From positions 602,763-666,762 of the forward strand of contig JACPDA010000004.1 of assembly GCA_016184225.1 (NCBI GenBank): 64,000 nt of DNA, in the 5' to 3' direction. The position numbers were made by a program, and so were the translations under genes. Each line of letters starts with the position of its first letter. Position 1 is the first letter of the stretch. Under the pieces are notes generated by a model. It had not been told where the DNA came from. It saw only the letters and a list, made by a program, of their open reading frames with translations, and did not search any database. Of the stretch, positions 8,611 to 63,446 are shown piece by piece. The stretch is from Candidatus Daviesbacteria bacterium. GTDB taxonomy: Bacteria; Patescibacteriota; Microgenomatia; Daviesbacterales; UBA10151.

Positions 8611-10446
8611 ATGAAGATTGATAAATTAAGCAAATTGGCAAAATTGTTAAGGTATTATATCCTGGTGTCTTCTTCCAGAGCCGGTTCAGGGCATCCGACT
8701 TCATCCTTGTCAGCTGTAGAGTTAATGGGGACACTGCTTTTTGGGGGCTTTTTTAGGTTTGACCTGAAAAACAAAAATAACCCCCTTAATGACCGGTTAA
8801 TCTTTTCCAAAGGCCATGCCTCTCCCCTTTATTATTCCCTTTTCACGGCGGCAGGTGCCATTACCAAAGCAGAACTCATGACTCTCCGGAAATTCGGCAG
8901 CAGATTAGAAGGCCACCCGACCATGGAATTTCCTTACACAGAGGTGCCAACAGGTTCCTTAGGCCAGGGTTTGTCAGCCGGTTTAGGCATGGCTTTGGTC
9001 AGCAAATACCTGGATAAAAGTAATTTCCGGACTTTTGTGCTCTTGGGGGATTCTGAAATGGCAGAAGGGTCTGTCTGGGAAGCTATACAGATAGCTGCTT
9101 TTTACAAGCTGGATAATTTAGTGGCCATCCTGGACGTAAACAGACTGGGACAAAGCCGGGAAACCATGCTCGGCCATGATGTTTCAAGCTACAAAAAAAA
9201 GCTGGAAGCCTTTGATTGGGAAGCAATTGTTATTGACGGCAATGACCTAAAACAGGTGACGGCGGCTTTTGAGAAAGCCTTAAAAGTGAAGGGTAAGCCG
9301 GTAATGATTATTGCCAAAACCTTTAAAGGCAGTGGTATATCATTTTTGGAAAATAAGGAAAACTGGCACGGCAAAGCCCTGGGTGAAAAGGATCTGAGTC
9401 TGGCATTGGGAGAATTGGGCCCGATAAATAAAAAGCTGCGCGGAAAAATTAATTTGCCCCGAAAGGCAGCTCTGAAAAAACAACCTGTCACCTATAACCT
9501 GAAACCTGTAACCTATTCCTTGGGCGAAACCATTGCCACCAGAAAAGCTTATGGTAATGCCCTAATTAGGCTGTTTCCCAAATACCCTGATATGGTAGTC
9601 CTGGACGGGGAAACCAGCAATTCTACTTACTCGGAATTTTTTGCCAAGGCGTATCCTGAGCATTTTTTTGAGATGTTTATTGCCGAACAAAACATGACCG
9701 GGGTGGCTCTTGGCCTGGCCAGGCTGGGTAAAATTCCCTTTATTTCCACTTTTGCCGCCTTTTTTACCAGAGCATATGATCAGATCAGAATGGCCCAATA
9801 TGCTGATACCAATATCAAGTTTTGCGGATCCCATGCCGGAGTATCTATCGGTGAGGACGGTTCCTCCCAAATGGGATTGGAGGATATCGGAATGTTCCGA
9901 TCGCTTTTGGGGAGCGTGGTGTTATACCCTGCTGATGCTGTATCCTGCGAAAAGCTGACTGAGGAAGCTATCAAGCATAAAGGAGTGGTTTATTTGAGAA
10001 CCACCAGGAAAGAAACACCGACTCTTTATAAAGCCAATGAAAAATTCCCCATAGGAGGCAGCAAGGTGGTTCGCAAAAGTAAGTCAGATCAGGTGACAGT
10101 GGTAGGGGCCGGCATTACGCTGCATGAAGCCTTAAAAGCCTATGACCTACTGAAAGCTAAAGGTATCTCCATCCGGGTCATTGATTTGTATTCTGTTGCC
10201 CCACTGGATTTAAAAACTTTAAAGCAGGCTGCTAAGGAAACAATGGCTGTTATTACTGTTGAAGATCATCATGCGGCAGGGGGAATAGGGGAAGCTGTGG
10301 CAGCTGCGCTGTCAGGAACAGGAAAGCCGGTACACATTATGGCAGTTACCAAAATGCCGCATAGCGGCAAGCCGGATGAGCTGCTGGAATATGAAGGTAT
10401 CTCTGCATCAGCTATTTACTCTAAAGTAAAAAAAGTGATAGTGTAA
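8611..10446 (+). CDS. tkt: transketolase
   Basis: Thiamine-diphosphate motifs (SSRAGSGHPTSSLS, GDSEMAEG) and pyrimidine-binding and C-terminal domains. ATG at 8611 follows the gdh stop directly; the longer ORF from 8509 overlaps gdh. Confidence 0.85.
   Translation: MKIDKLSKLAKLLRYYILVSSSRAGSGHPTSSLSAVELMGTLLFGGFFRFDLKNKNNPLNDRLIFSKGHASPLYYSLFTAAGAITKAELMTLRKFGSRLEGHPTMEFPYTEVPTGSLGQGLSAGLGMALVSKYLDKSNFRTFVLLGDSEMAEGSVWEAIQIAAFYKLDNLVAILDVNRLGQSRETMLGHDVSSYKKKLEAFDWEAIVIDGNDLKQVTAAFEKALKVKGKPVMIIAKTFKGSGISFLENKENWHGKALGEKDLSLALGELGPINKKLRGKINLPRKAALKKQPVTYNLKPVTYSLGETIATRKAYGNALIRLFPKYPDMVVLDGETSNSTYSEFFAKAYPEHFFEMFIAEQNMTGVALGLARLGKIPFISTFAAFFTRAYDQIRMAQYADTNIKFCGSHAGVSIGEDGSSQMGLEDIGMFRSLLGSVVLYPADAVSCEKLTEEAIKHKGVVYLRTTRKETPTLYKANEKFPIGGSKVVRKSKSDQVTVVGAGITLHEALKAYDLLKAKGISIRVIDLYSVAPLDLKTLKQAAKETMAVITVEDHHAAGGIGEAVAAALSGTGKPVHIMAVTKMPHSGKPDELLEYEGISASAIYSKVKKVIV
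9484..9518 (+). repeat. 5 tandem heptamers CCTGTAA-like, in frame in tkt
   Basis: cctgtca cctataa cctgaaa cctgtaa cctattc. Encodes the tandem 7-aa repeat QPVTYNL KPVTYSL. Confidence 0.7.
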
Positions 10447-18623: not shown

Positions 18624-19298
18624 TTAGCCTTCCACACCGGGTGTGGAATCGTAAACGTCATCCAGTTGGTGATGCTTAAGTATTTCTAGCTCCATTCCAT
18701 AATCCACCTGAGCTATTACGAATTTTTCGTAGTCTTTTGAATTTTTAAATAACCCCAAAACTATATCTGGAACACATATTATTGGTTTTATTAAATATTC
18801 CTGATAAGAAGACCAAGGGTATTTGTCTATACTTTTAATTAGTTTAGAAACTACCGGATTTAGATGGATATACCGGGATACGTGTACTAATTGTTCATCA
18901 TTTTCAATCCTAACGGCCTTAAACCTATTTTGCCATAACGGACCAACCCGGTTATATTTAGTATTGAAATACTTAGAATAACTATTACAAAACTGCTGAA
19001 TAAAACGACTAGCCCCATTATCTTGTAATTGCCTGATCAAGAAGTGAAAATGGTTGGGCATAAGGCAATATCCGATAATTTCAACATATTTCTTGTCGGA
19101 AATTGGTTTTGAAAAATTTAATTTTGCTTTGCTAAAAAAAGAGAACTTGGGCTTCTTGCCGGAAAACTGATAATAGTAAAATGTTTTTCTGAAACGGTCA
19201 TAATCTCTTGGCTGAAGAAAAATATCTCGCTTTTCACTTCCTCTGTTAAAAAGGTGGTAAATCTCTCCTGTTATAATTGGTGATGTTCTTCCGGGCAT
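18624..19298 (-). CDS. tnpA: IS200/RAYT-like Y1 tyrosine transposase
   Basis: YCLMPNHFHFLI HuH motif and the downstream catalytic Tyr region (VSRYIHLNPV). Paralog of the 43244..43915 gene. The true start is probably M53 (MPGRTSPIITGEIYHLFNRG); the longer ORF to 19454 runs through the terminal hairpin. Confidence 0.7.
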   Translation of the reverse strand: MPGRTSPIITGEIYHLFNRGSEKRDIFLQPRDYDRFRKTFYYYQFSGKKPKFSFFSKAKLNFSKPISDKKYVEIIGYCLMPNHFHFLIRQLQDNGASRFIQQFCNSYSKYFNTKYNRVGPLWQNRFKAVRIENDEQLVHVSRYIHLNPVVSKLIKSIDKYPWSSYQEYLIKPIICVPDIVLGLFKNSKDYEKFVIAQVDYGMELEILKHHQLDDVYDSTPGVEG

Positions 19299-19345
19299 AT
19301 CTTCTACTTTAGCTTTCCACACCCGAGGTGTCAACCTATGGCCCT
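18628..19345 (-). mobile_element. IS200-like insertion sequence (about 720 bp, single Y1 transposase, subterminal hairpins)
   Basis: Hairpin TTCCACAC-CGG-GTGTGGAA at 18630-18648 and TTCCACACCCGAGGTGTCAACCT at 19315-19340, in the same orientation, flank tnpA. The size matches IS200. Confidence 0.5.
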
Positions 19346-19346
19346 C

Positions 19347-19368
19347 TAAAAAAGCCCCTTGCGGGGCT
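19347..19368 (-). terminator. rho-independent terminator after the GH5-like gene
   Basis: Minus strand reads AGCCCC-GCAA-GGGGCT followed by TTTTTT. Confidence 0.55.
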
Positions 19369-19512
19369 TCCTTAGAGAACCTGTCAATATCGGTCTTGCG
19401 ACTGATAAAGAAACTTTTTGTCTTACGACTGAAGTTTTTAACAGGTTTAATCACTTTACATCAGCGAATATACTCTGTCAACTGGGACAAAACGGATCAA
19501 AATATAGCAAAA

Positions 19513-21378
19513 TTACTGGGAAAAGGGCAGCAGTTTCCAGAATTCAGCGGGGTGTAGGATAGCTGAAAGCAGATCAGGTTGCAATGTTCCAAAATCCAGA
19601 TCATTAACTCCTGTATAAACTTTTTGGTTTAAGGTTTTAGGTTTATAGAAAGGCTTTTCCAGGGAAAATTCAAAGGGATAATCAGGTAACAGATACCTGG
19701 CTTCTATCTCGCCGGAGATCCCTTGCTTATTTAAAGTAATGCTTTGTGCGCTTTCCCCGCTTACCCCCTTAACCTTCAGAGTGTAAGTACCTGTAAAGTC
19801 CCTCTTCCACCCCAGCGCGCCTATAATTTTTAAGATGACTGGTGATTTCACTTCAGTTGTAAAACGTAGCGGTTTGGATTCAAATTGTTTGCCCCCTATA
19901 AATAAATTTAAGGAGACTTCGTATGTTCCGCTTTCCGGGGCTTTTAATTTCAGGTTAAAAGTATGCTCTCCTCCCGGTTCTATTTTTTTGTCTTTTGGCA
20001 AGCTGACACTATCAATCCCCAGTTCACGGCCGCCTGCAAGGGGAACCAATTTTACCTGTTCTGCATCATTCCAAATGGATTGGCCCGTGTTTTTAAAAGT
20101 TAAGGAAATTATATAGGTTTCTCCCATTACTATAGAACTATATATTTCACCTTTTGTCAGACTTGCCTTTGTTTCCTGGAGCGGTTCTCCGGCCACCTTT
20201 GGCAAATCCATTATTGTTTGATACATGGAATAATACTCCGGATACTGAACACCTAAAATCCTGATATCGGGTAGTTTTTCCTTTTGTTTCTCTCCGGTTA
20301 TTTTCTTAAAAGAGAAATGATCAAAAGGAGCCTCCTGATAGCTTAGTAAGAAAGGGGTGACTGCAACAATTCTGTCAAGATTCCAGGCATTTTCAAAGGC
20401 TTTTTGCAAATTCACAGATACAGTATCAGCATCAGGTAATTTCGGATCGTAGTTAATTCCTTCCGCATGTTTCCAGCCGGTTTCGGTAATAAATATGGGT
20501 AGCTTTTTATTGACCCCAAGATTTTTGAGCTGCTCCATCTCCCAGACATAAGTCCTGACGGTTCCGCGGCCACTGGCATCAGGTGACCCGGCAAATTCCG
20601 GATTAGGATAAGAGTGTGATGTCCAACCGTCCAGCTTTTCGAAAATACCAGGCACGGCTTCCTCCATTAACCTCATAAAAGTGACCTGATCTTCGTACTT
20701 AGGCGCCTTCGGAGGAGCAGAGGCATCAAAACCGCCGTTGAGTACAAAAAAGTCTCTATTTTTGTTTTTTAGCGCTGTAATAGTCCGATCCAGCACTTTT
20801 GCATAATCTTTAGCGTCAACATTATTTCCCCATTCGCTGGCATGATTGGGTTCGTTATAAACAATTACATAACGGTTTTTAGTGGGCCAGATTAAGGCAT
20901 CTAAAAAATCAGCCCAAGCCTCCTCTTCCCCCTCGTAAGGCCTTTTCCAGTAGTTACCTTCCGGTTGGGTAGCTAACCTAACAATGGGGATTAAGTGCCG
21001 GCGGCGCAGGTCATTAAAAAACTCCTGCCATTTATTATGATCTCTGTCCTTACTCTCGACCAAAACTGTAATGTAGCCCCAGTCGCCGTGAGTATTAACG
21101 AGTGAAGCGGCAGGTGAAGATTCGTCGGGAGTAGCCTGGAGGATGTGAATACCGAAGCGGTTGTTCGGGACAGAAAGAGGATCGGTAATGGCATAGGTAG
21201 GGAACAGGGTACAGGGGACAGTGAACAGGAAAAACAAGAGCGCAATAATACTGTAACCTGTAACCTTCAACCTGTAACCTCTCTCTTGACCTTTGGGTTT
21301 ATTTCGGGTAATAATGGATATTATGTTAGAAATAGAGGAACCTATTAATGTTTGGGTCTTTTTTAAAAGTAACCTCAT
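19513..21378 (-). CDS. secreted glycoside hydrolase, GH5-like (beta/alpha)8 with C-terminal Ig-like region
   Basis: N-terminal TM/signal. VIVYNEPNH (NEP acid/base) and FITETGW (nucleophile Glu) motifs typical of GH5-type clan GH-A. Beta-rich C-terminus. Confidence 0.5.
   Translation of the reverse strand: MRLLLKKTQTLIGSSISNIISIITRNKPKGQERGYRLKVTGYSIIALLFFLFTVPCTLFPTYAITDPLSVPNNRFGIHILQATPDESSPAASLVNTHGDWGYITVLVESKDRDHNKWQEFFNDLRRRHLIPIVRLATQPEGNYWKRPYEGEEEAWADFLDALIWPTKNRYVIVYNEPNHASEWGNNVDAKDYAKVLDRTITALKNKNRDFFVLNGGFDASAPPKAPKYEDQVTFMRLMEEAVPGIFEKLDGWTSHSYPNPEFAGSPDASGRGTVRTYVWEMEQLKNLGVNKKLPIFITETGWKHAEGINYDPKLPDADTVSVNLQKAFENAWNLDRIVAVTPFLLSYQEAPFDHFSFKKITGEKQKEKLPDIRILGVQYPEYYSMYQTIMDLPKVAGEPLQETKASLTKGEIYSSIVMGETYIISLTFKNTGQSIWNDAEQVKLVPLAGGRELGIDSVSLPKDKKIEPGGEHTFNLKLKAPESGTYEVSLNLFIGGKQFESKPLRFTTEVKSPVILKIIGALGWKRDFTGTYTLKVKGVSGESAQSITLNKQGISGEIEARYLLPDYPFEFSLEKPFYKPKTLNQKVYTGVNDLDFGTLQPDLLSAILHPAEFWKLLPFSQ
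21251..21285. repeat. CCTGTAA heptamer array (4-5 units), in frame in the GH5-like gene N-terminus
   Basis: ctgtaac ctgtaac cttcaac ctgtaac. Same unit and DNA orientation as the tkt array but read on the opposite coding strand (GYRLKVTGYS). Confidence 0.7.
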
Positions 21379-21560
21379 ACAGCCTTACTCCTTTTTCTGG
21401 CACGGTAGAGAAATTAAAATAGATAAAATCAATTTAGTCCACACTTCCCGAAACGGTTCTTCGCTATTTTACCATTTTTCCGTAATGTCGGGAGGAAACT
21501 TTTACAGATTGAGGCTTGACACTAATAGAATGCGTTGGATACTGGAGGCAGTTGAAGAGG

Positions 21561-21635
21561 GATAGCTATCAGTCATCAGTCTTCAGCTCTCAGACTAAAA
21601 ATAAATCTGACGACTGAAAGCTGACAGCTGACGAC
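21561..21635 (+). repeat. bipartite heptad-repeat element A (TATCAGY x4, A-rich spacer, TGACGAC x4), ending 4 nt before the dinB ATG
   Basis: tatcagt catcagt cttcagc tctcagac + taaaaataaa + tctgacgac tgaaagc tgacagc tgacgac. Shares tcagtcttcagct with the copy inside gatD. Confidence 0.65.
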
Positions 21636-21639
21636 TACT

Positions 21640-23097
21640 ATGCGAAGCATACTACATATTGACTTCAATTCTTATTTTGCTTCTGTTGAACAACAGGCAA
21701 ATCCCCGGCTGCGGGGTAAACCAATTGGTGTTACAGGTGGGGATAGGATGCACAGGACAGTTTTGGGTGCAGCTTCAATAGAAGCCAAAAGGTTTGGTGT
21801 TAAAACCGGGATGCAGATTTGGGAAGCCAGGAAGCTTTGTCCACAAATTATCCTGGTGCCAGGAGATTCGGATAAGTATTTGGAGATAACTAAACGCTTT
21901 TTAAGTATTTTAAAAGACTACAGCCCTGCCCGCATTGCTTCGTCCACCAGTAACGCTTCGCGTAACGATGCGGACTGGCAAAGCGATGCAGGCGGGCCAT
22001 ATTTGGAGGTTTTTTCTATTGATGAATGTTTTTTAGAATTGGTGAATACTTCAGTCGGCAGCCCCGCTCTCTTGCTCGCTAACGCAAGCGTCCTGCGGTC
22101 CGATATGGATCGGACCTCGGATACGCTCGTCTTCGACTCGTCTAGAGCTTGCTGCGTTCGGAGGCAGCCTCCTTCTGCTACAGAGATTGCTTTTGATATT
22201 AAAAGTAGAATCCGGACTGAAATAGGCGAATACATTACCTGTTCTATTGGCATCTCTTACAATAAACTGATGGCCAAACTGGCTGGATCTTTACAAAAGC
22301 CTGATGGTCTGGTAATCATTCCCAACCAGGAAGAGGCGATTAAAGTTTTAGACAAAATAGAACTGGATGAAATTTGCGGCATCGGGCCAAGGATTAAGAA
22401 AAGGTTAAACAACTTAGGAGTATTTAATTTTTACCAGCTAAGGCAAGTTCCTTTAGAAAGCTTACTGGCTGCCTTTAAAAGCTATGGTCAGATCCTTTAT
22501 AACATGGCCAGGGGTATTGACCATTCACCTGTAGTGCCTTTTTACCAAAAAGAAGAAGTAAAAAGTATCGGTCACAGACATACTATAGATCATGATACTG
22601 CCGACCCAAAAGAGATAAAACAAATTCTACTCAAACTGTCTGAGATGGTAGCCAGAAGACTCAGGGCTAAAAGATTGGTTGGCAAAACCATCCATTGCTG
22701 GTATCGGGAAGCATTCTACTCCCGATTCCACCTGGAAGGTGAAAAAATGCAGCTACACCTTCCAGGTGAGTTTAATGGTAACAGCATGCAAATGACTATT
22801 CTCTATACCAATGATGGTTTGGATATCTTTAAAGCTGCCTGGAAAATTTTTCATCAGATCTGGAATACGGAAAAAATTAGGATGGTTGGTATCTCCATCT
22901 CCAACCTTAAACCCCAAACCCCGCAAAATTTAAGTTTTTTGCCTGAAGAGCAAAGAAAAGAGATAATCACCAAAGCTTTGGATAAAATTAATGACAGATA
23001 CGGTGAATTTACCCTGCAACGCGGCATCCTGCTTCAATCTGCTTCCATCAAAAGAAAGCCCAACCCCTTCCTAGCTGACAGAAGATTCAGACTTTAG
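21640..23097 (+). CDS. dinB: DNA polymerase IV (Y-family) with two GC-rich in-frame insertions
   Basis: ILHIDFNSYFASVEQ, FSIDECFLEL, SIGISYNKLMAKLA and C-terminal little-finger motifs. 485 aa, against about 350-400 typical. Confidence 0.8.
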   Translation: MRSILHIDFNSYFASVEQQANPRLRGKPIGVTGGDRMHRTVLGAASIEAKRFGVKTGMQIWEARKLCPQIILVPGDSDKYLEITKRFLSILKDYSPARIASSTSNASRNDADWQSDAGGPYLEVFSIDECFLELVNTSVGSPALLLANASVLRSDMDRTSDTLVFDSSRACCVRRQPPSATEIAFDIKSRIRTEIGEYITCSIGISYNKLMAKLAGSLQKPDGLVIIPNQEEAIKVLDKIELDEICGIGPRIKKRLNNLGVFNFYQLRQVPLESLLAAFKSYGQILYNMARGIDHSPVVPFYQKEEVKSIGHRHTIDHDTADPKEIKQILLKLSEMVARRLRAKRLVGKTIHCWYREAFYSRFHLEGEKMQLHLPGEFNGNSMQMTILYTNDGLDIFKAAWKIFHQIWNTEKIRMVGISISNLKPQTPQNLSFLPEEQRKEIITKALDKINDRYGEFTLQRGILLQSASIKRKPNPFLADRRFRL

Positions 23098-25504: not shown

Positions 25505-25527
25505 GATTACACCCTTGGGGTGTAATC
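25505..25527. repeat. REP-like hairpin GATTACACCC-TTG-GGGTGTAATC
   Basis: Same family as 31978-32000 and 35808-35834. Confidence 0.7.
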
Positions 25528-25573: not shown

Positions 25574-25617
25574 GGGTGTCAACCTAATACACCCTCCGGG
25601 TGTAAAGCTGTAAAGCT
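25574..25617. repeat. REP-like element GGGTGTCAACCTAATACACCCTCCGGGTGTAAAGCTGTAAAGCT
   Basis: Near-identical to the right end of the IS200-like element at 43949-43985. Confidence 0.7.
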
Positions 25618-31977: not shown

Positions 31978-32000
31978 GATTACACCCCAGGGGTGTAATC
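31978..32000. repeat. REP-like hairpin GATTACACCC-CAG-GGGTGTAATC
   Basis: Same family as 25505-25527, about 12 nt from the tRNA-Pro 3' end. Confidence 0.7.
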
Positions 32001-35246: not shown

Positions 35247-36935
35247 ATGTGGGTAAAAATACTCCTTTTATTTTTTGTTTTTTCTTTCCTTTTCCGGACT
35301 GATGATTCATTTAACCAGGACCTAGGCAGGCATCTTAAACTGGGGGAAATTATCCTCCAAACTAAAAATATTCCCCTGACTAACCTTTTCTCCTATACCT
35401 ATCCGGATTACCCATTTATTAACAGCCACTGGTTATTTGAAGTTCTAGTTTATCTGGGCCGGCAGACAATTGGCCTACCGGCACTACTTTTTTTAAAAGT
35501 AGCCATTATTTTACTGGCTGTCTGGCTGGTTTTAAAAACTATACCCAAAAACCAATATTTGCTTTTACCTGTGGGTTTTCTTTTTCTGCATACCTTAAGG
35601 GAGCGGCCGGACCTTAGACCGGAAGTCCTAAGTTTTCTCTTTACCGGGCTGACTGTTTATATTTTAAGTAAATTTGATCAGGCAAAAAGCAAGCTAATCT
35701 TTTTTTTGCCGGTTATCCAACTCGTCTGGGTCAATAGCCATATCTATTTTATGTTAGGCTTGTTTCTACAGGCTATTTATCTGATCCACCTGGGGTACCA
35801 ATACTCACGATTACACCCCAAGGGTGTAAAGCTGAAAATGCTGGGGATAATTTTCTTATTATCGGTTACAGCCAGTTTAATCAATCCCAGCGGCCTCAAA
35901 GGCTTCCTAAACCCCCTGACTTTTAATCAAAACTACGGCTATACCATTGTGGAAAACCAGACCATGTTTCTTTTGGAAAGCATTAACTTCCGGGACCCTA
36001 ATTTTTTGTTTGTCAAGATTGCCATAGCCATTATTTTACTTTCAGTTTTTGTAGCCCTATTCAAGAAAGGATTAACAATAAAGAATCTGGGTCTGGCCGG
36101 TCTAGGCATGGCGTTGGCTTTAATGAATGTCAGGAGCTTTCCTTATTTGGCTTTAATCTCACTTCCGCCGGTGCTGGAAAATTTTGGAACTTTCCGTTCC
36201 GCCGGCCTGCCTAAAATGCTGATTTGGGTGACAGTACCGCTGCTGCTTTTGGAAAGCTTTTTTTACCTAAACGGGGATTATTATAAATATACCGGCAGCG
36301 CGACCAGGCCGCTGCTTCAATTTGAAGAAAATGGTAAAGGCGCCCTGGATTTTGTTTTAAGAAATAATTTGCCCCAGCCGATTTTTAATAATTTTGACAT
36401 CGGCAGTTACATTACCTACCGGGGGTGGCCTGCCTCGCCGCAAGGCGGGCCAAAATACCGGATCTTTGTGGACGGCAGGCCAGGGGAGTACCCTAAGGAA
36501 TTTTTTCAGCAAATTTATATCCCTGCCCAATATGAGCCGCAGAAATTTGCCGAACTTGACCAAAAATTCGGATTTAAAACCATTATTTTTTCGATAACCG
36601 ACCAGACCCCCTGGGGACAGGCATTTTTGGCCTCAATAGTTAAAAACCCTCAGTGGAAAACAGTGTACCTGGATCACTTTATAATAGTGCTTATAAAAAG
36701 TGAGCTAGCCCTGCAGGACGAGGCCCGGGAGCCTATTAACCTGGCCAAGTTGAATCCGGCTGATTATAACCTTGACTTTTACCTACAATATCTCAGGTTA
36801 TCATTGTTTCTAGCCCAGGTGGGCTATCCGGAAGCAGCCCAAAAATTTGCCAGGGCCGGGTTGCTACTTTTCCCCCAAAGCCCGCTTGGAAATGCCCTGT
36901 TCGGAATTGAAGTCAGGAATAATTACTTCTGGTGA
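35247..36935 (+). CDS. large polytopic membrane protein (GT-C-like glycosyltransferase?)
   Basis: At least 10 TM helices and a C-terminal TPR-like soluble domain. Contains an in-frame REP-like hairpin at 35808-35834. Confidence 0.35.
   Translation: MWVKILLLFFVFSFLFRTDDSFNQDLGRHLKLGEIILQTKNIPLTNLFSYTYPDYPFINSHWLFEVLVYLGRQTIGLPALLFLKVAIILLAVWLVLKTIPKNQYLLLPVGFLFLHTLRERPDLRPEVLSFLFTGLTVYILSKFDQAKSKLIFFLPVIQLVWVNSHIYFMLGLFLQAIYLIHLGYQYSRLHPKGVKLKMLGIIFLLSVTASLINPSGLKGFLNPLTFNQNYGYTIVENQTMFLLESINFRDPNFLFVKIAIAIILLSVFVALFKKGLTIKNLGLAGLGMALALMNVRSFPYLALISLPPVLENFGTFRSAGLPKMLIWVTVPLLLLESFFYLNGDYYKYTGSATRPLLQFEENGKGALDFVLRNNLPQPIFNNFDIGSYITYRGWPASPQGGPKYRIFVDGRPGEYPKEFFQQIYIPAQYEPQKFAELDQKFGFKTIIFSITDQTPWGQAFLASIVKNPQWKTVYLDHFIIVLIKSELALQDEAREPINLAKLNPADYNLDFYLQYLRLSLFLAQVGYPEAAQKFARAGLLLFPQSPLGNALFGIEVRNNYFW
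35808..35834. repeat. REP-like hairpin CGATTACACCCCAAGGGTGTAAAGCTG inside a CDS
   Basis: Family member in frame, encoding SRLHPKGVKL. Confidence 0.65.
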
Positions 36936-43186: not shown

Positions 43187-43995
43187 AGGTTTACACCCGG
43201 AGGGTGGTATAGCTTTACACCTGTTCTTTCATTCATTAAAATATCATTCAAAAGTTAGATGCTTGATAGCTTCCAACTGTTTCCCATAGTCTATTTGATT
43301 ATTAACAAATTCCTGATAGGCTTTTATTGTTTTGAACATGCTCAAAATTAAATCTGTCTGCGATATTTCCAGGTTGGATAAAGATAAATATTCCGGATAG
43401 GATGACCACTGATAACTCTCCAGCTTATCATCCGGTATCACACCGGAAGCCACCGGGTTTAGGTGGATGTACCTGGAGACATGAACCAGCTGCTCATCAC
43501 TTTCAATATGAACCGCCTTAAAAACACCCTCAAATAAGGGCCCTGTTCTTTCATATTTGGTATTAAAATATTTAGTATAAGCGTTTGTAATATTGGAGAT
43601 AAAAGAGGAGATCCCTTTATCTGTGTTTTGTTTAAGCATAAAATGGAAATGGTTGGGCATCAGGCAGTAACTTAGGATATCTACCGCTCTTTCACTCTTA
43701 TAAAGAGCAGCCAGTAACTTCTCTCTGATCTCTTCAGGTTGCTGGATAACCTGGGAAAACCTGACCGGGATATCCTTGTGCCTATAGAATTTGACCAGCT
43801 TCTGCATCCTTTCAAATTCTCTTTTTTCCGTAAATGTAGTCCTTCTTTCTATTCCTCTATTAAATATATGATAGATCTCGCCCTCTCGAAACACCAACTT
43901 TCTAAGTGTGGCCATAAATATATCTTAAACATAATAGAGAAAGGGTGTCAACCTAAAACACCCGGAGGGTGTATGGGTGGGTGTATGGGTAATAG
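43187..43995 (-). mobile_element. IS200-like insertion sequence (about 810 bp) with subterminal hairpins
   Basis: TTTACACCCGGAGGGTGGTA at 43191-43210 and GGGTGTCAACCTAAAACACCCGGAGGGTGTATGG at 43949-43982 flank a single Y1 transposase gene in the same orientation. Confidence 0.55.
43244..43915 (-). CDS. tnpA: IS200/RAYT-like Y1 tyrosine transposase
   Basis: YCLMPNHFHFML HuH motif and the downstream catalytic Tyr region (VSRYIHLNPV). Strong similarity to the 18624..19298 paralog. Confidence 0.75.
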   Translation of the reverse strand: MATLRKLVFREGEIYHIFNRGIERRTTFTEKREFERMQKLVKFYRHKDIPVRFSQVIQQPEEIREKLLAALYKSERAVDILSYCLMPNHFHFMLKQNTDKGISSFISNITNAYTKYFNTKYERTGPLFEGVFKAVHIESDEQLVHVSRYIHLNPVASGVIPDDKLESYQWSSYPEYLSLSNLEISQTDLILSMFKTIKAYQEFVNNQIDYGKQLEAIKHLTFE

Positions 43996-52211: not shown

Positions 52212-54053
52212 TTATTTTACCGTCACGCTTTTGGCAATGTTTCTGGGTTTGTCCACATTATGGCCTAACTCCACAGCCATGTAATAGGCCAGAAGCTGCA
52301 AGGGGATAATATTCATGATGGCAGAGGTTTCCCCTGTATCCGGCACCGGAATATAATGGTCAAAGCTGGCATGAGGCTTTGAAGAAATACCAATCACTGT
52401 TGCTCCCCTGGCTTTAACCTGGTTAACAGCATTAATTACATCATCCTTGGCCACATCTTCTGAGAGAACTACCACCACCGGAACCCCTTTTTCCATTAAG
52501 GTAATGGCATAATGTTTCAGGTCTCCGGCCGGAATACCGTGGGCATGGATATACGCCCCCTCAATTATTTTAACCATCCCTTCCTTAACAATATTAAGGT
52601 TTTGGTATTTACCCAGCAGAAAAATATGCTGCTTTTTAGCTAACTCTTTAGCCAGCTTCTTGAGCAAATCGTGATTTCTGCCTGAATTTAAATATTGATC
52701 TATTACCTCAGCTAGTTTTTTTAAATTGACTTTACCCTCTTCACTTTTTCCACTTATCACTTTGGCTAACAAATACCCCCAGGCAATTTGAGAAGTAAAA
52801 ACTTTGGTAGACATGACACAAATTTCCGGCCCGGCGTGTGAAGCAAAAGGATAATCAGAAATCCTACCCATGGTAGAGCCCGGCATATTCACATAAGAGG
52901 CAATTTTTAAGTCCTTTTTCCTGGCAATTTCCAAAACTTCCAACACATCTGCAGTTTCCCCGGACTGGGAAGGAGCAATCATCAGATCATCCTTAGTCAA
53001 AAGTTCATAATACTCATAAATATCTGCCCCAATCACACTTTCTGCCTTAATTTTACCAAATACCCGGAGGTAAAAAGCAATCTGGGATGCGGCAATGCCG
53101 GCTGTACCTGAGCCGATTGTATAAACATTTTCAGCTTTTTTAAGTTGCTTAACAAAATCTTCGTATAATTTGTAATCCTGATTTACCACCTGGCTGACCA
53201 CATAAGGGCTCTCAAAGATTTCTTTCAGCATAAAGTGGTCATAGCCTTCCTTATCCACCTTGCTGCTTTTAAGATTAATCCTTTCGGAACGGCAGAGTAA
53301 GGGTTTGTTGGATCTAATGTCCACCAGGTCAAGCTTGCCATTGTAACTTACCATTTGTCCGTTATCTAAAACAACCACCTTTTTAACGTATGGGGCAAAA
53401 GACAAAGTGTCGGAAGAAAGAAAAACTTCCCCGTCGTTTATTCCGATTACCAAAGGGGATCCGTTCCTGGCAGCCATAATTTGGCCGTCCTTAGCCAAAA
53501 CAATAATGGTATTTCTGCCTTCCAACTCCAAAAAAGCTGCCCTAATAGCCTCTTTCAACCTCTCACCACCTGGAAGGCGGGCTTTGTTCCGTAGGACGTT
53601 CTCTCCTTCCAGGTGAACTAATTTCTCTTCTATTAATCTGACAATGACTTCCGTATCTGTTTCCGACTCAAATTTATAGCCTTTTTTCAGCAAGTCTTTT
53701 TTAAGCTCCTGGTAGTTTTCTACAATACCGTTTTGAGCCAGGGCAAAACTTTTATCAGTAGAAAAGTGGGGATGGGCATTGATTTCGGAGATGCCGCCGT
53801 GAGTAGCCCAGCGGGTGTGACCGATACCAGTTGAAGAGTGATGAGTGTTAAGTGAGAAGTGGGAAGTCAAATCACCTATAGCACCAATACGCTTTTCTAA
53901 TTTTATCCCAGACTTTGCACTTTGCCCTTTGCACTCTTCACTTATTATGGCAATACCCCAGGAATCATAACCCCGGTATTCCAGCCTTTTTAAGCCTTCC
54001 AGGATCACTTCAGGGGCATTTTTCGGGCCGGAGTAACCAAAGATGCCGCACAT
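52212..54053 (-). CDS. glmS: glutamine--fructose-6-phosphate aminotransferase
   Basis: MCGIFGY N-terminal nucleophile, two SIS domains, C-terminal VTVK-like tail. 613 aa. Confidence 0.9.
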   Translation of the reverse strand: MCGIFGYSGPKNAPEVILEGLKRLEYRGYDSWGIAIISEECKGQSAKSGIKLEKRIGAIGDLTSHFSLNTHHSSTGIGHTRWATHGGISEINAHPHFSTDKSFALAQNGIVENYQELKKDLLKKGYKFESETDTEVIVRLIEEKLVHLEGENVLRNKARLPGGERLKEAIRAAFLELEGRNTIIVLAKDGQIMAARNGSPLVIGINDGEVFLSSDTLSFAPYVKKVVVLDNGQMVSYNGKLDLVDIRSNKPLLCRSERINLKSSKVDKEGYDHFMLKEIFESPYVVSQVVNQDYKLYEDFVKQLKKAENVYTIGSGTAGIAASQIAFYLRVFGKIKAESVIGADIYEYYELLTKDDLMIAPSQSGETADVLEVLEIARKKDLKIASYVNMPGSTMGRISDYPFASHAGPEICVMSTKVFTSQIAWGYLLAKVISGKSEEGKVNLKKLAEVIDQYLNSGRNHDLLKKLAKELAKKQHIFLLGKYQNLNIVKEGMVKIIEGAYIHAHGIPAGDLKHYAITLMEKGVPVVVVLSEDVAKDDVINAVNQVKARGATVIGISSKPHASFDHYIPVPDTGETSAIMNIIPLQLLAYYMAVELGHNVDKPRNIAKSVTVK

Positions 54054-58638: not shown

Positions 58639-58721
58639 TGCGGACGAGAGGAGTTGAACCTCCACACCATTTCTGGCACAGCCACCTCAAGGCTGCGTGT
58701 CTACCATTCCACCACGTCCGC
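58639..58721 (-). tRNA. tRNA-Leu (anticodon GAG)
   Basis: Type II: acceptor GCGGACG/CGTCCGC, anticodon stem CAGCC/GGCTG with loop TTGAGGT, long variable arm. Confidence 0.8.
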
Positions 58722-58723
58722 AT

Positions 58724-58809
58724 TGGTGCCGAAGAGAGGAGTTGAACCTCCACCCCATTGCTGGGACAGCGCTCTGAACGCTGCGTGTCTACCATTCCAC
58801 CACTTCGGC
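58724..58809 (-). tRNA. tRNA-Leu (anticodon CAG), CCA encoded
   Basis: Type II: acceptor GCCGAAG/CTTCGGC, anticodon stem CAGCG/CGCTG with loop TTCAGAG. 2 nt from the neighbouring tRNA-Leu. Confidence 0.8.
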
Positions 58810-61269: not shown

Positions 61270-62595
61270 ATGGGGTATAATTTCTCCATGCGTTTACTCT
61301 TTGCAATTCTGTTAGGCAAGTTGATTACCTATCTGACAAGGATTCTCAAAATCGGTGGTGGTTCTGCTGCGCCCGGTTTATATGCCTTAAAAATATACCC
61401 TTCCCTGGTTGAAAAGTTAAGCAAACGTATCCCCAAAAGTGTGGTCATCACCGGCACCAATGGTAAAACCACCACTGCCAAAATGCTGGCCCATTTTGCT
61501 ACAGCTTCCGGATTAAAAGTAATAAGAAACCACACCGGTTCAAACTTGGAAAGGGGAATAGCCTCTACATTGATCCACGGTGTGAGCCTATCCCACCCCT
61601 GGGGTGGGATGAATAGACACCTCGGGATTTGGGAGTTGGATGAAGCGGCTTTTAATGCGGTTGCGCCTAAGCTAAGCCCGGATGTGATTGTCTTTTTGAA
61701 TGTCTTCCGGGACCAGCTGGACCGCTACGGGGAGATCAATACTGTTCTCAAGAACTGGCAGGAAACACTAAAAAAGATCCCTTCCGGCACCAAAGTTTTA
61801 GTAAATGGTGACGATGCTAATATTTTGAGACTGGCCACTAGTTTTAGAGGTAAAGTCCAAAAATTTGGGGTTAAGGATTATAAGATTGTAGGGGAGGGCA
61901 TTGTCCACAAAAAAGAACAAGAAAACCTCGATTTCGAAGCTAAAGATGTCAAATTAGATGGCTTGAACAGTTCCAGTTTTATTCTCCAAACTACCAACTA
62001 CCAACTACCAACTACCTTACCATTACCAGGCATTTACCACATTTATGATTCTCTGGCAGCCTTTGCCTGCGCATTTAATCTGGGGTTACCAGTCAACCAA
62101 TTCACTAATTCTCTGATTCACTATACACCTGCTTTCGGCAGAGTAGAAAAATTAGGCTTTGGGTATATTTTCCTGATCAAAAACCCGGCCGGAGCTACCC
62201 AGGTTTTTGAAACTATAGCCCCCAACTTAAAACCCACTGATACTCTGCTTTTGGCTTTAAATGACAACATAGCAGATGGAACCGACGTATCCTGGATCTG
62301 GGATGCGAATTTTGAAGTACTTCAAAATTCGTCCCGAGCGAAGTCGAGGGACCTCAAATTATATGTTTCAGGCTCAAGAGCCTATGAACTGGCTGCCAGG
62401 CTCAAATATGCCGGTTTTGATCCTAAAAATATTACCGTGGACCCGAACCTTAAAAATGCTTTCAGACAGGCTAGAAGGAATCTAAAAGGGCAGTTATTCA
62501 TCCTGCCTACCTATACAGCTATGCTGGAATTGCAGTCTATTTTAGCCAAATCTGGTATTAAGAAACATTATTGGGAGGAGGAAGATAGAGTCTAG
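61270..62595 (+). CDS. murT: lipid II isoglutaminyl synthase subunit MurT (Mur-ligase-like)
   Basis: VVITGTNGKTTT Mur-ligase P-loop and C-terminal DUF1727-like domain. Immediately followed by gatD. Confidence 0.8.
   Translation: MGYNFSMRLLFAILLGKLITYLTRILKIGGGSAAPGLYALKIYPSLVEKLSKRIPKSVVITGTNGKTTTAKMLAHFATASGLKVIRNHTGSNLERGIASTLIHGVSLSHPWGGMNRHLGIWELDEAAFNAVAPKLSPDVIVFLNVFRDQLDRYGEINTVLKNWQETLKKIPSGTKVLVNGDDANILRLATSFRGKVQKFGVKDYKIVGEGIVHKKEQENLDFEAKDVKLDGLNSSSFILQTTNYQLPTTLPLPGIYHIYDSLAAFACAFNLGLPVNQFTNSLIHYTPAFGRVEKLGFGYIFLIKNPAGATQVFETIAPNLKPTDTLLLALNDNIADGTDVSWIWDANFEVLQNSSRAKSRDLKLYVSGSRAYELAARLKYAGFDPKNITVDPNLKNAFRQARRNLKGQLFILPTYTAMLELQSILAKSGIKKHYWEEEDRV
61991..62018 (+). repeat. CTACCAA heptamer array (3 exact units plus degenerate units), in frame in murT
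   Basis: ctaccaa ctaccaa ctaccaa ctacctt, encoding TTNYQLPTTLP. Confidence 0.65.
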
Positions 62596-62660
62596 TCGCT
62601 AGAATCTAGAGTCTGGAAATTCAAAATCTAGACTCTTGACTCTCGACTCTAGTCACTAAC
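62587..62660 (+). repeat. bipartite heptad-repeat element B (AGAGTCT x4, A-rich spacer, AGACTCT x4), ending at the gatD ATG
   Basis: agagtct agtcgct agaatct agagtct + ggaaattcaaaat + ctagact cttgact ctcgact ctagtca ctaac ATG. The two arms are reverse complements. Confidence 0.65.
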
Positions 62661-63446
62661 ATGAAGCTGACCATTGGCTATCTATATGGGGATTTGATGA
62701 ATATCTACGGAGACACCGGCAATATTATTGCCCTGAAGAAACGGGCCGAGTGGCGGGGAATAGAAGTTGAAATTAAAAATATCTCTATCGGAGATAAGTT
62801 GAAAAAGGGTGAGGTGGATATTTTCTTTTTTGGAGGAGGACAGGACCAAGCTCAGGAGTTGGTATCAGCAGACTTACTTAAATCCGGTAAAGGAAAACTC
62901 ATCAAACAAGAAGTTGAAAGGGGAATGCCGCTGCTGGCTATTTGTGGAGGTTATCAGCTATTGGGCGATTACTACAGACCACATAAGGGACCTAAACTGC
63001 CCGGAATTAGCATGTTTCCGGCCTATACTTTAGCAAGTTTCGACAGGATGATCGGCAATATTGTTATTCAGTCTTCAGCTATCAGCTATCAGCTATCAGA
63101 CAGAAAACAAAAAAAGTCTGACGACCGACGACTGACGACTGACGACTTTCTTGTCGGTTTTGAAAACCATTCCGGAAAAACATACCTTAAAAAGGGTGCA
63201 AATCCTTTAGGTTTGGTTTCCAAGGGCTGGGGGAATAATGGCAAGGACAAAACAGAAGGCTGCATCTATAAAAATGCCATTGGCTGCTATATGCACGGCT
63301 CACTTTTACCCAAAAACCCTAAGCTGGCAGACTGGCTTCTTAAAAAAGCTTTAGAAACAAAATATGGTAAGGAAATTTTACTGGAGCCTTTGGATGATAC
63401 CTTAGAACTCCAAGCTCACGGAGTAGCTGTCAAAAAATTTGGTTAG
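62661..63446 (+). CDS. gatD: glutamine amidotransferase GatD (CobB/CobQ-like, partner of MurT) with about 26-aa insertion
   Basis: YGDLMNIYGDTGN start, catalytic Cys in AICGGYQLLG and His in MHGSLL. The insertion SSAISYQLSDRKQKKSDDRRLTTDDF is encoded by heptad element C. Confidence 0.8.
   Translation: MKLTIGYLYGDLMNIYGDTGNIIALKKRAEWRGIEVEIKNISIGDKLKKGEVDIFFFGGGQDQAQELVSADLLKSGKGKLIKQEVERGMPLLAICGGYQLLGDYYRPHKGPKLPGISMFPAYTLASFDRMIGNIVIQSSAISYQLSDRKQKKSDDRRLTTDDFLVGFENHSGKTYLKKGANPLGLVSKGWGNNGKDKTEGCIYKNAIGCYMHGSLLPKNPKLADWLLKKALETKYGKEILLEPLDDTLELQAHGVAVKKFG
63069..63146 (+). repeat. bipartite heptad-repeat element C (CAGCTAT x4, A-rich spacer, TGACGAC x4), in frame inside gatD
   Basis: cagtcttcagctatcagctatcagctatcagac + agaaaacaaaaaaa + gtctgacgaccgacgactgacgactgacgac. 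Shares tcagtcttcagct with element A. Confidence 0.65.

Follow-up and report, generated by a model that had tools for sequence, protein, structure and literature searches.

Heptanucleotide-built hairpin repeats within and between genes of a Candidatus Daviesbacteria genome

Heptanucleotide repeats have been known since 1990, are unexplained, and have been treated mostly as intergenic curiosities. The STRR heptamers of heterocystous cyanobacteria, reportedly introduced by Mazel et al. in 1990, are said to be mainly intergenic and to have CCCCAGT, TTGGTCA and CAACAGT as the units of STRR1-3. Direct repeats of the heptamer TAACTGA were described in Beggiatoaceae, cyanobacteria and Bacteroidetes (MacGregor 2015, PMC4679880), and GGGAATC/GGGGAYT heptamers in Xanthomonas and Nostoc (Rehm et al. 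2015, PMC4692102). Rickettsia palindromic elements (RPEs) lie in frame in unrelated housekeeping genes, where they are translated and apparently compatible with the protein fold, according to PMC10969869, which summarises Ogata et al. 2000. We report here on heptamer-built elements found within and between genes in 64,000 nt of DNA (the window) of a Candidatus Daviesbacteria bacterium of the candidate phyla radiation (CPR)/Patescibacteria (GCA_016184225.1, contig JACPDA010000004.1, positions 602,763-666,762, forward strand). The account that we favour, and hold to be fairly probable, is that these heptamer-hairpin DNA repeats are selfish or neutral, that they are copied from locus to locus and remodelled in steps of 7 nt by slippage or template switching, and that they are passively translated where this is tolerated.

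The closest matches of the window proteins are those of Candidatus Daviesbacteria, and the GH5-like protein and GatD have 100% identical counterparts among the NCBI proteins of a single Daviesbacteria metagenome-assembled genome. A cyanobacterial origin, which the heptamers had first suggested by analogy with the STRRs of Nostocales, was ruled out since the protein matches are all to Daviesbacteria. Loci used for comparison are labelled L001-L016, L206-L208, L212 and L213 when they come from other Daviesbacteria or relatives, L081-L200 when they come from metagenomes, and L218-L268 when they are viral contigs.

Period-7 arrays and composite elements in the window

Tandem Repeats Finder (TRF) gave 11 period-7 rows with a score of at least 30 in the window against 1.32 expected from 60 dinucleotide shuffles, and 7 with a score of at least 40 against 0 expected from the same shuffles. 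An independent lag scan of the window returned 12 lag-7 regions, whereas the remaining lags between 4 and 12 gave 0-2 each. The period-7 signal of the window is real and far above chance. The arrays are heptanucleotide tandem repeats in the usual sense (a head-to-tail 7-nt unit in at least three units, above chance), dispersed over 12 regions in 64 kb and built of several unit families, among which CCTGTAA, AGGGNAC, TCAGNNN, CTGAYRR, AACTACC, TAGAGTC and ACTTTGC. The 88-nt repeat also reported by TRF at 58639-58809 (-) consists of two tandem tRNA genes of ~83 nt each that are 87% identical. The heptamer features are the following:

9474-9521, plus strand: linker of the transketolase gene tkt; A-rich loop remnant AAAAAACAA followed by a CCTGTAA-type array (9484-9518), a single arm of 5 units.
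21196-21234, minus strand: left arm (in plus-strand sense) of an AGGGNAC/CCTGTAA element; encodes FLFTVPCTLFPTY, the signal-peptide core of a GH5-like protein; found by lag scan and TRF.
21246-21290, minus strand: right arm of the same element, (CTGTAAC)x4 and terminus CCTCTCTCTTG; encodes RGYRLKVTGYS, within the GH5-like N-terminus.
21564-21636, plus strand: intergenic TCAG-type composite hairpin in the dinB leader, ending 3 nt before the dinB-like ATG (21640).
22895-22922, plus strand: dinB-like gene, C-terminal part; weak stretch of period 7, lag scan only.
53831-53947, minus strand: two inverted heptamer arrays in glmS (53831-53871 and 53908-53947) that flank the conserved KRIGAIGDL codons.
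61989-62016, plus strand: perfect AACTACC x4 array in murT; encodes TTNYQLPTT, a beta-hairpin just before LPLPGIYHIY.
62586-62657, plus strand: composite hairpin of TAGAGTC/GACTCTA type at the murT-gatD junction.
63069-63149, plus strand: in-frame TCAG-type composite insert in gatD, translated as SSAISYQLSDRKQKKSDDRRLTTDDF.

A preliminary description made from the window letters had noted three arrays, in tkt, in the GH5-like gene and in murT. Coordinates, units and translations are correct for the first two (9484-9518 and 21251-21278); the third is also present, with four perfect AACTACC units at 61989-62016 instead of the three that had been counted. Pfam confirms the transketolase (8509/8611-10446) and MurT (61270-62595), whereas the "GH5-like" label derives from a Pfam Cellulase match under threshold (E 2.4e-4). 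The arrays noted at that stage are single arms of composite elements laid out as heptamer array, A-rich loop and inverted array. Beyond them the window holds the inverted partner at 21196-21234, the composites at 21564-21636, 62586-62657 and 63069-63149, and the glmS pair at 53831-53947. Most elements are two-armed and about 60-85 bp long, have an A/T-rich loop and can fold as a hairpin; the main families are three: AGGGNAC/CCTGTAA, TCAGNNN/CTGAYRR and xAGTTxx/AACTACC.

Related copies at unrelated loci and their translation

Copies with an identical order of variant units were found in different species at loci that are not related to one another; they lie in either orientation, and both within and outside coding DNA. 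The plus strand of 21196-21290 reads (AGGGAAC AGGGTAC AGGGGAC AGTGAAC AGG)-AAAAACAAGAGCGCAATAATA-(CTGTAAC CTGTAAC CTTCAAC CTGTAAC)CTCTCTCTTG, the four units of the right arm (21251-21278) giving GYRLKVTGYS on the minus strand. The GH5-like gene reads the whole in reverse as RGYRLKVTGYS-IIALLF-FLFTVPCTLFPTY, so that the element encodes its signal-peptide region. It aligns across left arm, loop, right arm and terminus with the gatD insert of L206 (protein P0314), (AGGGTAC)x3-AAACACCAT-(CCTGTAA CCTATCA CCTGTCA CCTGTAA)CCTCTCTT; one general element, (AGGGNAC)n-loop-(CCTGTAA)n-CCTCTCTT, is reversed in the GH5-like N-terminus and forward in the L206 GatD. This shared composite and the existence of non-coding members bear out the earlier proposal that the repeats are DNA-level elements and not the outcome of selection on peptides. 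The peptide pair RGYRLKVTGYS/FLFTVPCTLFPTY is present in many GH5-like homologs, and in others its position is taken by an xAGTTxx/xAACTAC pair. The GH5-like open reading frame (ORF) has a 30-amino-acid N-terminal extension (21283-21378, minus strand; MRLLLKKTQTLIGSSISNIISIITRNKPK) ahead of the signal peptide that the heptamers encode. This extension is conserved in many homologs; others begin with the signal peptide itself, and the start codon assumed here is tentative.

In tkt the units CCTGTCA CCTATAA CCTGAAA CCTGTAA CCTATTC (9484-9518) are translated as QPVTYNLKPVTYS. Loop and right arm of the L206 insert can be aligned to this segment, including the CCTAT variant in the second unit. The alignment scores 53, the null being 14.4 +/- 3.0, and among 3000 random windows a single one reached this score (maximum 56), most likely one that overlaps the GH5 element itself. 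The array occupies an inter-domain linker that varies in every homolog and whose length here is inside the normal range, which does not support the lineage-specific insertion that had been proposed for this gene; the second copy of the peptide (KPVTY) falls on a widely conserved xP[VI]xY motif. The relatives L207 and L208 (84% and 79% identity) encode the identical peptide by the same heptamer DNA, partly decayed; the same peptide in non-repetitive DNA, named beforehand as evidence against a DNA-level repeat, was not found in them. More distant tkt homologs have other heptamer-like linker peptides, STNYQLLTTNY (P0031) and SNFKFQN (P0017).

The TCAG-type elements also align with one another: the gatD insert and the dinB leader of the window, the murT-gatD junctions of L003 and L016, and copies in low-GC metagenome contigs. 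They share the parts TAGCYATCAGTCTTCAGCTNTCAGAC...TCTGAYGACTGA...CTA and the termini TAGCYATCAG...GAYGACTAYT. The dinB leader element has the sequence (AGCTATC AGTCATC AGTCTTC AGCTCTC AGAC)-TAAAAATAAA-(TCTGACGACTGAAAGCTGACAGCTGACGACT) and a GGAGG ribosome-binding site upstream; in L213 a hairpin of the same kind adjoins the dinB ATG. At the murT-gatD junction of the window, (TAGAGTC TAGTCGC TAGAATC TAGAGTC TGG)-AAATTCAAAAT-(CTAGACT CTTGACT CTCGACT CTAGTCA CT) separates the ribosome-binding site GGGAGGAGGA (62573-62582), with which murT ends, from the ATG of gatD (62661), and its first unit contains the murT stop codon. A TCAG-type element ending at CTATTATG occupies this junction in L003 and L016; most relatives have no junction element, the stop codon of murT adjoining the start codon of gatD. 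The order ribosome-binding site, hairpin, 0-5 nt, ATG is found for dinB (window, L213) and for gatD (window, L003, L016). The polymerase IV (DinB)-like protein that follows the leader element (21640-23097, plus strand) has 485 amino acids and matches the IMS domain in two stretches (7-99 and about 179 onward), which implies, at the level of the alignment, an insertion of ~80 amino acids; the L213 ortholog has 405.

The gatD insert, (TCAGCTA)x3.6-CAGAAAACAAAAAAAG-(TCTGACG ACCGACG ACTGACG ACTGACG ACT), puts 78 nt (63072-63149) in place of an ancestral 15 nt encoding SMFGK, and its translation includes the peptide SSAISYQLS. Among 120 Daviesbacteria homologs the GatD loop is empty (MIGNIVIE-SMFGK-LVGFENHSG) in 70, a state close to that of the outgroup loops, themselves equal or nearly equal in length, and filled in the other 50 (42%) by at least six sequence or peptide families. 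On these alignments the gatD array is clearly an insertion and the GatD loop an insertion hot spot. Net inserts range from +1 to +26 amino acids and do not favour multiples of 7. The rule that each insert is a multiple of 21 nt, put forward in the preliminary description, fails here as it does for the three arrays first noted, which span 35, 35 and 28 nt by the coordinates given there. On a neighbour-joining tree of GatD with the insert masked, presence and absence require at least 24 gains or losses, a rough count as the tree is weakly resolved; the number of distinct insert families is the solid figure. Alignments to GatD structures in the PDB pass over the insert. It is predicted to be disordered: in an AlphaFold2 model (mean pLDDT about 87, pTM 0.88), residues 141-160 have a pLDDT below 50 at the tip of a beta-hairpin.

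In murT the supposed lineage-specific insertion proved to be a beta-hairpin replaced without change of length relative to all orthologs, including Streptococcus (the segment is equally long in all 16 other Daviesbacteria bar one, and the Streptococcus hairpin is within 2 residues). Over the same 42 nt, period-7 identity is at least 0.69 in 10 of 17 Daviesbacteria and 0.2-0.4 in outgroups, and the unit differs by species (AACTACC, CAATTAC, GTCAACT, ATCATAA, AATTGAA, CTATTAA and others). Uniformity within a species together with divergence between species at fixed length implies an ongoing homogenisation, which might proceed by conversion-like 7-nt template switching or by balanced gain and loss of three units. 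AACTACC is also the right arm of the L212 GatD insert (SSEFIVYSKKTTNYELPTTNY) and that of the L213 GH5-like N-terminus, at the place where the window has its CCTGTAA pair. Judged by these matches, each of the three arrays noted at the outset belongs to a dispersed family, which supports the DNA-level interpretation more strongly than the window alone. In glmS, the arm at 53908-53947 (N-terminal in the protein) adds 7 amino acids relative to E. coli GlmS and the other arm leaves the length unchanged.

A second variable murT loop (62328-62352, after WIWDANFE) contains the 8-amino-acid NSSRAKSR encoded by TTCGTCCCGAGCGAAGTCGAGGGAC. Nearly identical DNA is found at this site in L003, L007-L012 and L014, although their MurT proteins are only 56-76% identical, and L001, L002 and L013, which lack the segment, have heptamer arrays (AAGTTAA/GAGTTCA) there instead. 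TTCGTCCCGAGCGAAGTCGAGGGAC may be another small intragenic element. An orthologous ORF of L006 (17975-18292) and L009 (16890-17208) has two heptamer arrays ~240 nt apart, of AACAGGC type and of ACTACCA/AAACTCA type, which makes it a further candidate for a hot-spot gene.

If arrays of CCTGTAA or ACTGACG were perfect, every third unit would bring TAA or TGA into frame. The unit that would give the stop is the altered one in each coding copy read in this sense: CCTGAAA in tkt (unit 3), CCTGTCA in the L206 gatD and ACCGACG in the window gatD. In the GH5-like copy it is the untranslated strand that retains TAA. This is as expected for DNA repeats that are read by ribosomes and filtered for an open frame only. 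Coding inserts are in frame and free of stops, and one element yields unrelated peptides in its two orientations. These observations support the view that the elements are translated but not selected as protein; going by sequence, the peptides to be expected from translated arrays would include SSAISYQLSDRK and QTTNYQLPTT.

The elements are also present in independent assemblies, which break inside them. Logan contigs of 5 samples all end at 21614, within the dinB leader element; others end at 62656, in the junction element, and one at 63099, in the gatD insert (SRR121134xx samples). Repeated 31-mers could be the cause, or else a population that is heterogeneous in copy number, and the contig ends do not discriminate between the two.

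Proposed copying and remodelling, and alternative explanations

According to the account that we favour, the elements would be small and non-autonomous and would be copied at the DNA level, each copy then being remodelled in place by slipped-strand or template-switch events of 7 nt. Such remodelling would account for arrays that are internally uniform at one orthologous site and differ in their unit between species. In a compact genome, copies would survive only where they are harmless. One such place would be the interval between ribosome-binding site and ATG, where a hairpin could loop out and preserve the spacing; others would be surface loops, linkers and N-terminal regions of proteins, provided that the copy is in frame and stop-free. 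Copies at the protein sites would be passively translated into low-complexity peptides with a 7-residue period.

Several observations weigh against this account. The genome-wide excess of arrays is demonstrated for the 64-kb window only, because outside the murT-gatD hot spots their density in relatives is 0.35 per 10 kb versus 0.20 in outgroups; a family-wide excess of 5-8x in related Daviesbacteria loci was discarded as mostly ascertainment, since it was the murT-gatD hot spots around which these loci had been retrieved. Simple insertion does not account for the murT array or the second glmS arm, both of which leave the protein length as it is. The heptamer elements yielded no transposase, no target-site duplication and no set of near-identical multiple copies (TAGC...GCTA termini flanked by T/A were seen, a consistent duplication not being established), and the copies inside the window are only ~75% alike. 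RNA folds of the sense strand are modest (z -1.0 to -3.3; at the start codons dG -25 to -32 kcal/mol with z -1.0 to -3.2). The antisense strand of the TCAG-type elements folds far better (dG -37.6 and -34.4 kcal/mol, z -5.1 and -5.5, for 63060-63155 and 21555-21640) because their arms differ systematically by transitions (left TCAGCTA, right CTGACGA). Finally, a mutational bias may generate the same favoured heptamers convergently.

The distribution of the families beyond the window bears on this last point. A metagenome scan with TCAGTCTTCAGCTNTCAG returned at least 120 matches, nearly all of those listed being extended TCAG arrays, many with inverted CTGA partners; among the matches listed, contigs have a GC content of 0.37-0.66 and some arrays resemble terminators, such as the heptamer hairpins of L087 and L089, which are followed by a T run as in intrinsic terminators. 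The CCTGTAA-type pattern had 51 matches in viral contigs (GC 0.29-0.69), about a dozen of them with (AGGTGAC/AGGGAAC)n partners and a CCCTCT-like terminus. The viral contig L244 has ~10 perfect CCTGTAA units. The TCAG-type scan of viral contigs gave only 3 matches, none composite. Taken together, TCAGNNN/NNNCTGA and ACAGGNN/NNCCTGT hairpins span contigs of GC 0.29-0.69, viral ones included, among the matches listed. By these matches the TCAG- and CCTGTAA-type families are not CPR-specific, and their presence outside CPR fits either horizontal spread or a common mutational bias.

A bolder extension, which we put forward as a tentative possibility, is that the elements form an undescribed class of very small mobile elements with their own copying mechanism, moving horizontally and rewriting loops, signal peptides and initiation regions of essential CPR genes. 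The movement would be indicated by the AGGGNAC/CCTGTAA and TCAG/CTGA composites in contigs of GC 0.29-0.69 and in viral contigs, and copying could be due, for example, to a polymerase, replicative or of the Y family, that switches template in steps of 7 nt, or to a single-strand transposase.

Alternatively, the arrays could be ordinary simple-sequence repeats (SSRs) that arose separately at each site by 7-nt replication slippage, with no copying between loci. Heptanucleotides are reported to be the most abundant long SSR class in many bacteria, with polymerase slippage as the rationale (Mrazek et al. 2007, summarised in PMC4679880 and PMC4692102). The murT arrays fit such an origin, as they keep the protein length, border on the conserved codons for INLPLPG and consist of units similar to the flank, and so does the uniformity of arrays within a species at sites where the units differ between species. 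Slippage does not explain why variant-unit order, loop and non-repeat termini (CCTGTAACCTCTCTT, TAGCTATCAG...GACGACTAYT) recur at unrelated loci and in different species, nor the accumulation of at least six unrelated families in one GatD loop, and single 7-nt growth steps would frameshift essential genes. We regard independent slippage without copying as unlikely.

It is more doubtful still that the hairpins are functional regulatory structures, acting in translational control or as sites of RNA-binding proteins, with the coding copies as by-products. Their position speaks for it, as they directly adjoin the dinB ATG in two species and the gatD ATG in three or more. The TAACTGA repeats of Beggiatoaceae, too, mostly end ~1 nt ahead of a start codon and have been put forward as regulators of translation (PMC4679880). 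Against such a role, one and the same junction holds elements of different families, stop and start are adjacent with nothing between them in most relatives, and sense-strand folds are weak. Start-codon adjacency among metagenome matches (12/25 vs 29% in the control, by a crude hairpin and ORF caller) is not significant, and an Rfam search, which returned tRNAs only, matched no family to the hairpins.

The arrays could also be contingency loci in which gain or loss of 7 nt shifts the frame and causes phase variation: the unit length is not a multiple of 3, arrays lie within ORFs, and assemblies break inside elements, possibly from copy-number heterogeneity. This is very improbable, as Tkt, GlmS, MurT and GatD, in whose genes the arrays lie, are essential housekeeping enzymes, most arrays are imperfect and none is long (3-5 units), only in-frame states are seen in orthologs, and 90%-identity clusters contain no length variants. 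Selection on protein for 7-residue peptide repeats in beta-hairpins or linkers can hardly apply either: the murT and GatD sites are indeed beta-hairpins, and MacGregor (PMC4679880) obtained ab initio beta-sheet predictions for LSVISYQ repeats, but the period is 7 and not 21 nt and is perfect in the DNA of murT and gatD, one sequence is translated from either strand and occurs outside coding regions as well, unrelated peptide families share one loop, and the insert is predicted to be disordered.

If the elements are DNA repeats as favoured here, DNA-level repeats reshape housekeeping proteins of a reduced CPR genome. The GatD series of empty and filled loops is natural material on how repeats arise and spread, and bears also on how far proteins tolerate in-frame selfish DNA, while the sites with a hairpin between ribosome-binding site and start codon open the question whether such a hairpin is neutral or regulatory. 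In practice, short-read assemblies of CPR genomes break at such elements, and the proteins encoded there look more divergent than they otherwise would.

Comparison with described repeat systems

By their sequence, the TAACTGA repeats appear to be the closest described relatives of the window elements. The units are near-identical: the reverse complement of TAACTGA is TCAGTTA, and the window has TCAGCTA and TCAGTCT with the partner CTGAYRR; TCAGCTA, TCAGTCT and CTGACGA differ by 1-2 transitions, so that the exact TAACTGA unit is not present. Placement is likewise similar. TAACTGA arrays have 2-6 units and many end a few nucleotides before a start codon (PMC4679880), and here the array at 21605-21636 ends 3 nt before the ATG, with those of L003 and L016 ending at CTATTATG. 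Since TAACTGA has stops in all frames in its forward orientation, copies within ORFs are reversed; they encode LSVISYQ there and SSAISYQLS in the gatD copy here. The differences are that inverted pairs with an A-rich loop are usual here, compared to 1 inverted case in 170 sets reported by MacGregor (PMC4679880), that several other unit families coexist in the host, a CPR bacterium, and that copies occupy internal positions of essential enzymes, at recurrent hot spots, whereas TAACTGA copies in proteins are mainly at the ends.

The elements resemble the GGGAATC/GGGGAYT heptamers of Xanthomonas and Nostoc (PMC4692102) in a preference for ~4 units, in occasional inverted pairs able to form stem-loops, and in the variation of length and sequence at the same locus among close relatives. 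With the STRRs they have in common tandem heptanucleotides in several families per genome, dispersed and without known function. They are not STRRs in the sense of Mazel in 1990: the host is Candidatus Daviesbacteria, the units differ from those of STRR1-3, and there are coding copies.

REP/REPIN elements, too, are short, hairpin-forming, dispersed repeats, and the window has two genes resembling those of REP-associated tyrosine transposases (RAYTs). These paralogous Y1 transposase genes (18624-19454 and 43244-43915, both on the minus strand) are 47% identical, and their best NCBIfam match is the REP-associated tyrosine transposase, with 69 bits for a cutoff of 80. The second has a ACACCCGGAGGGTGT palindrome on both sides. 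This GC-rich palindrome is enriched in the window (14 matches vs 0.79 expected) and is found at 43193-43207, 43958-43972, 25509-25523, 25589-25603, 31982-31996 and 35813-35827. Genes and palindromes together look like a REP/RAYT system in a CPR genome, as far as their sequences tell. Unlike REPs, which flank a single-copy RAYT gene as its cognate substrate, the heptamer hairpins do not flank the RAYT-like genes, a position taken by ACACCCGGAGGGTGT; a RAYT was for this reason rejected as the heptamer mobiliser.

The likeness to RPEs lies in palindromic repeat families that are in frame in unrelated genes and translated. In-frame insertion of this kind is illustrated by the GatD loop, empty in 70 and filled in 50 of the 120 homologs, and by families shared by gatD, the GH5-like gene and tkt. 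RPEs are set apart, by description only, by their size of about 100-150 bp, by not being heptamer-built and by a conserved peptide, and here one loop has been struck repeatedly by different families. Among the papers searched for heptamer repeats in CPR/Patescibacteria, none links the two. In comparison with these systems, the features that appear to be new are that the elements are built of two arms and have recognisable termini, that several families coexist, that they recur at hot spots inside essential CPR enzymes, and that they occur in CPR at all.

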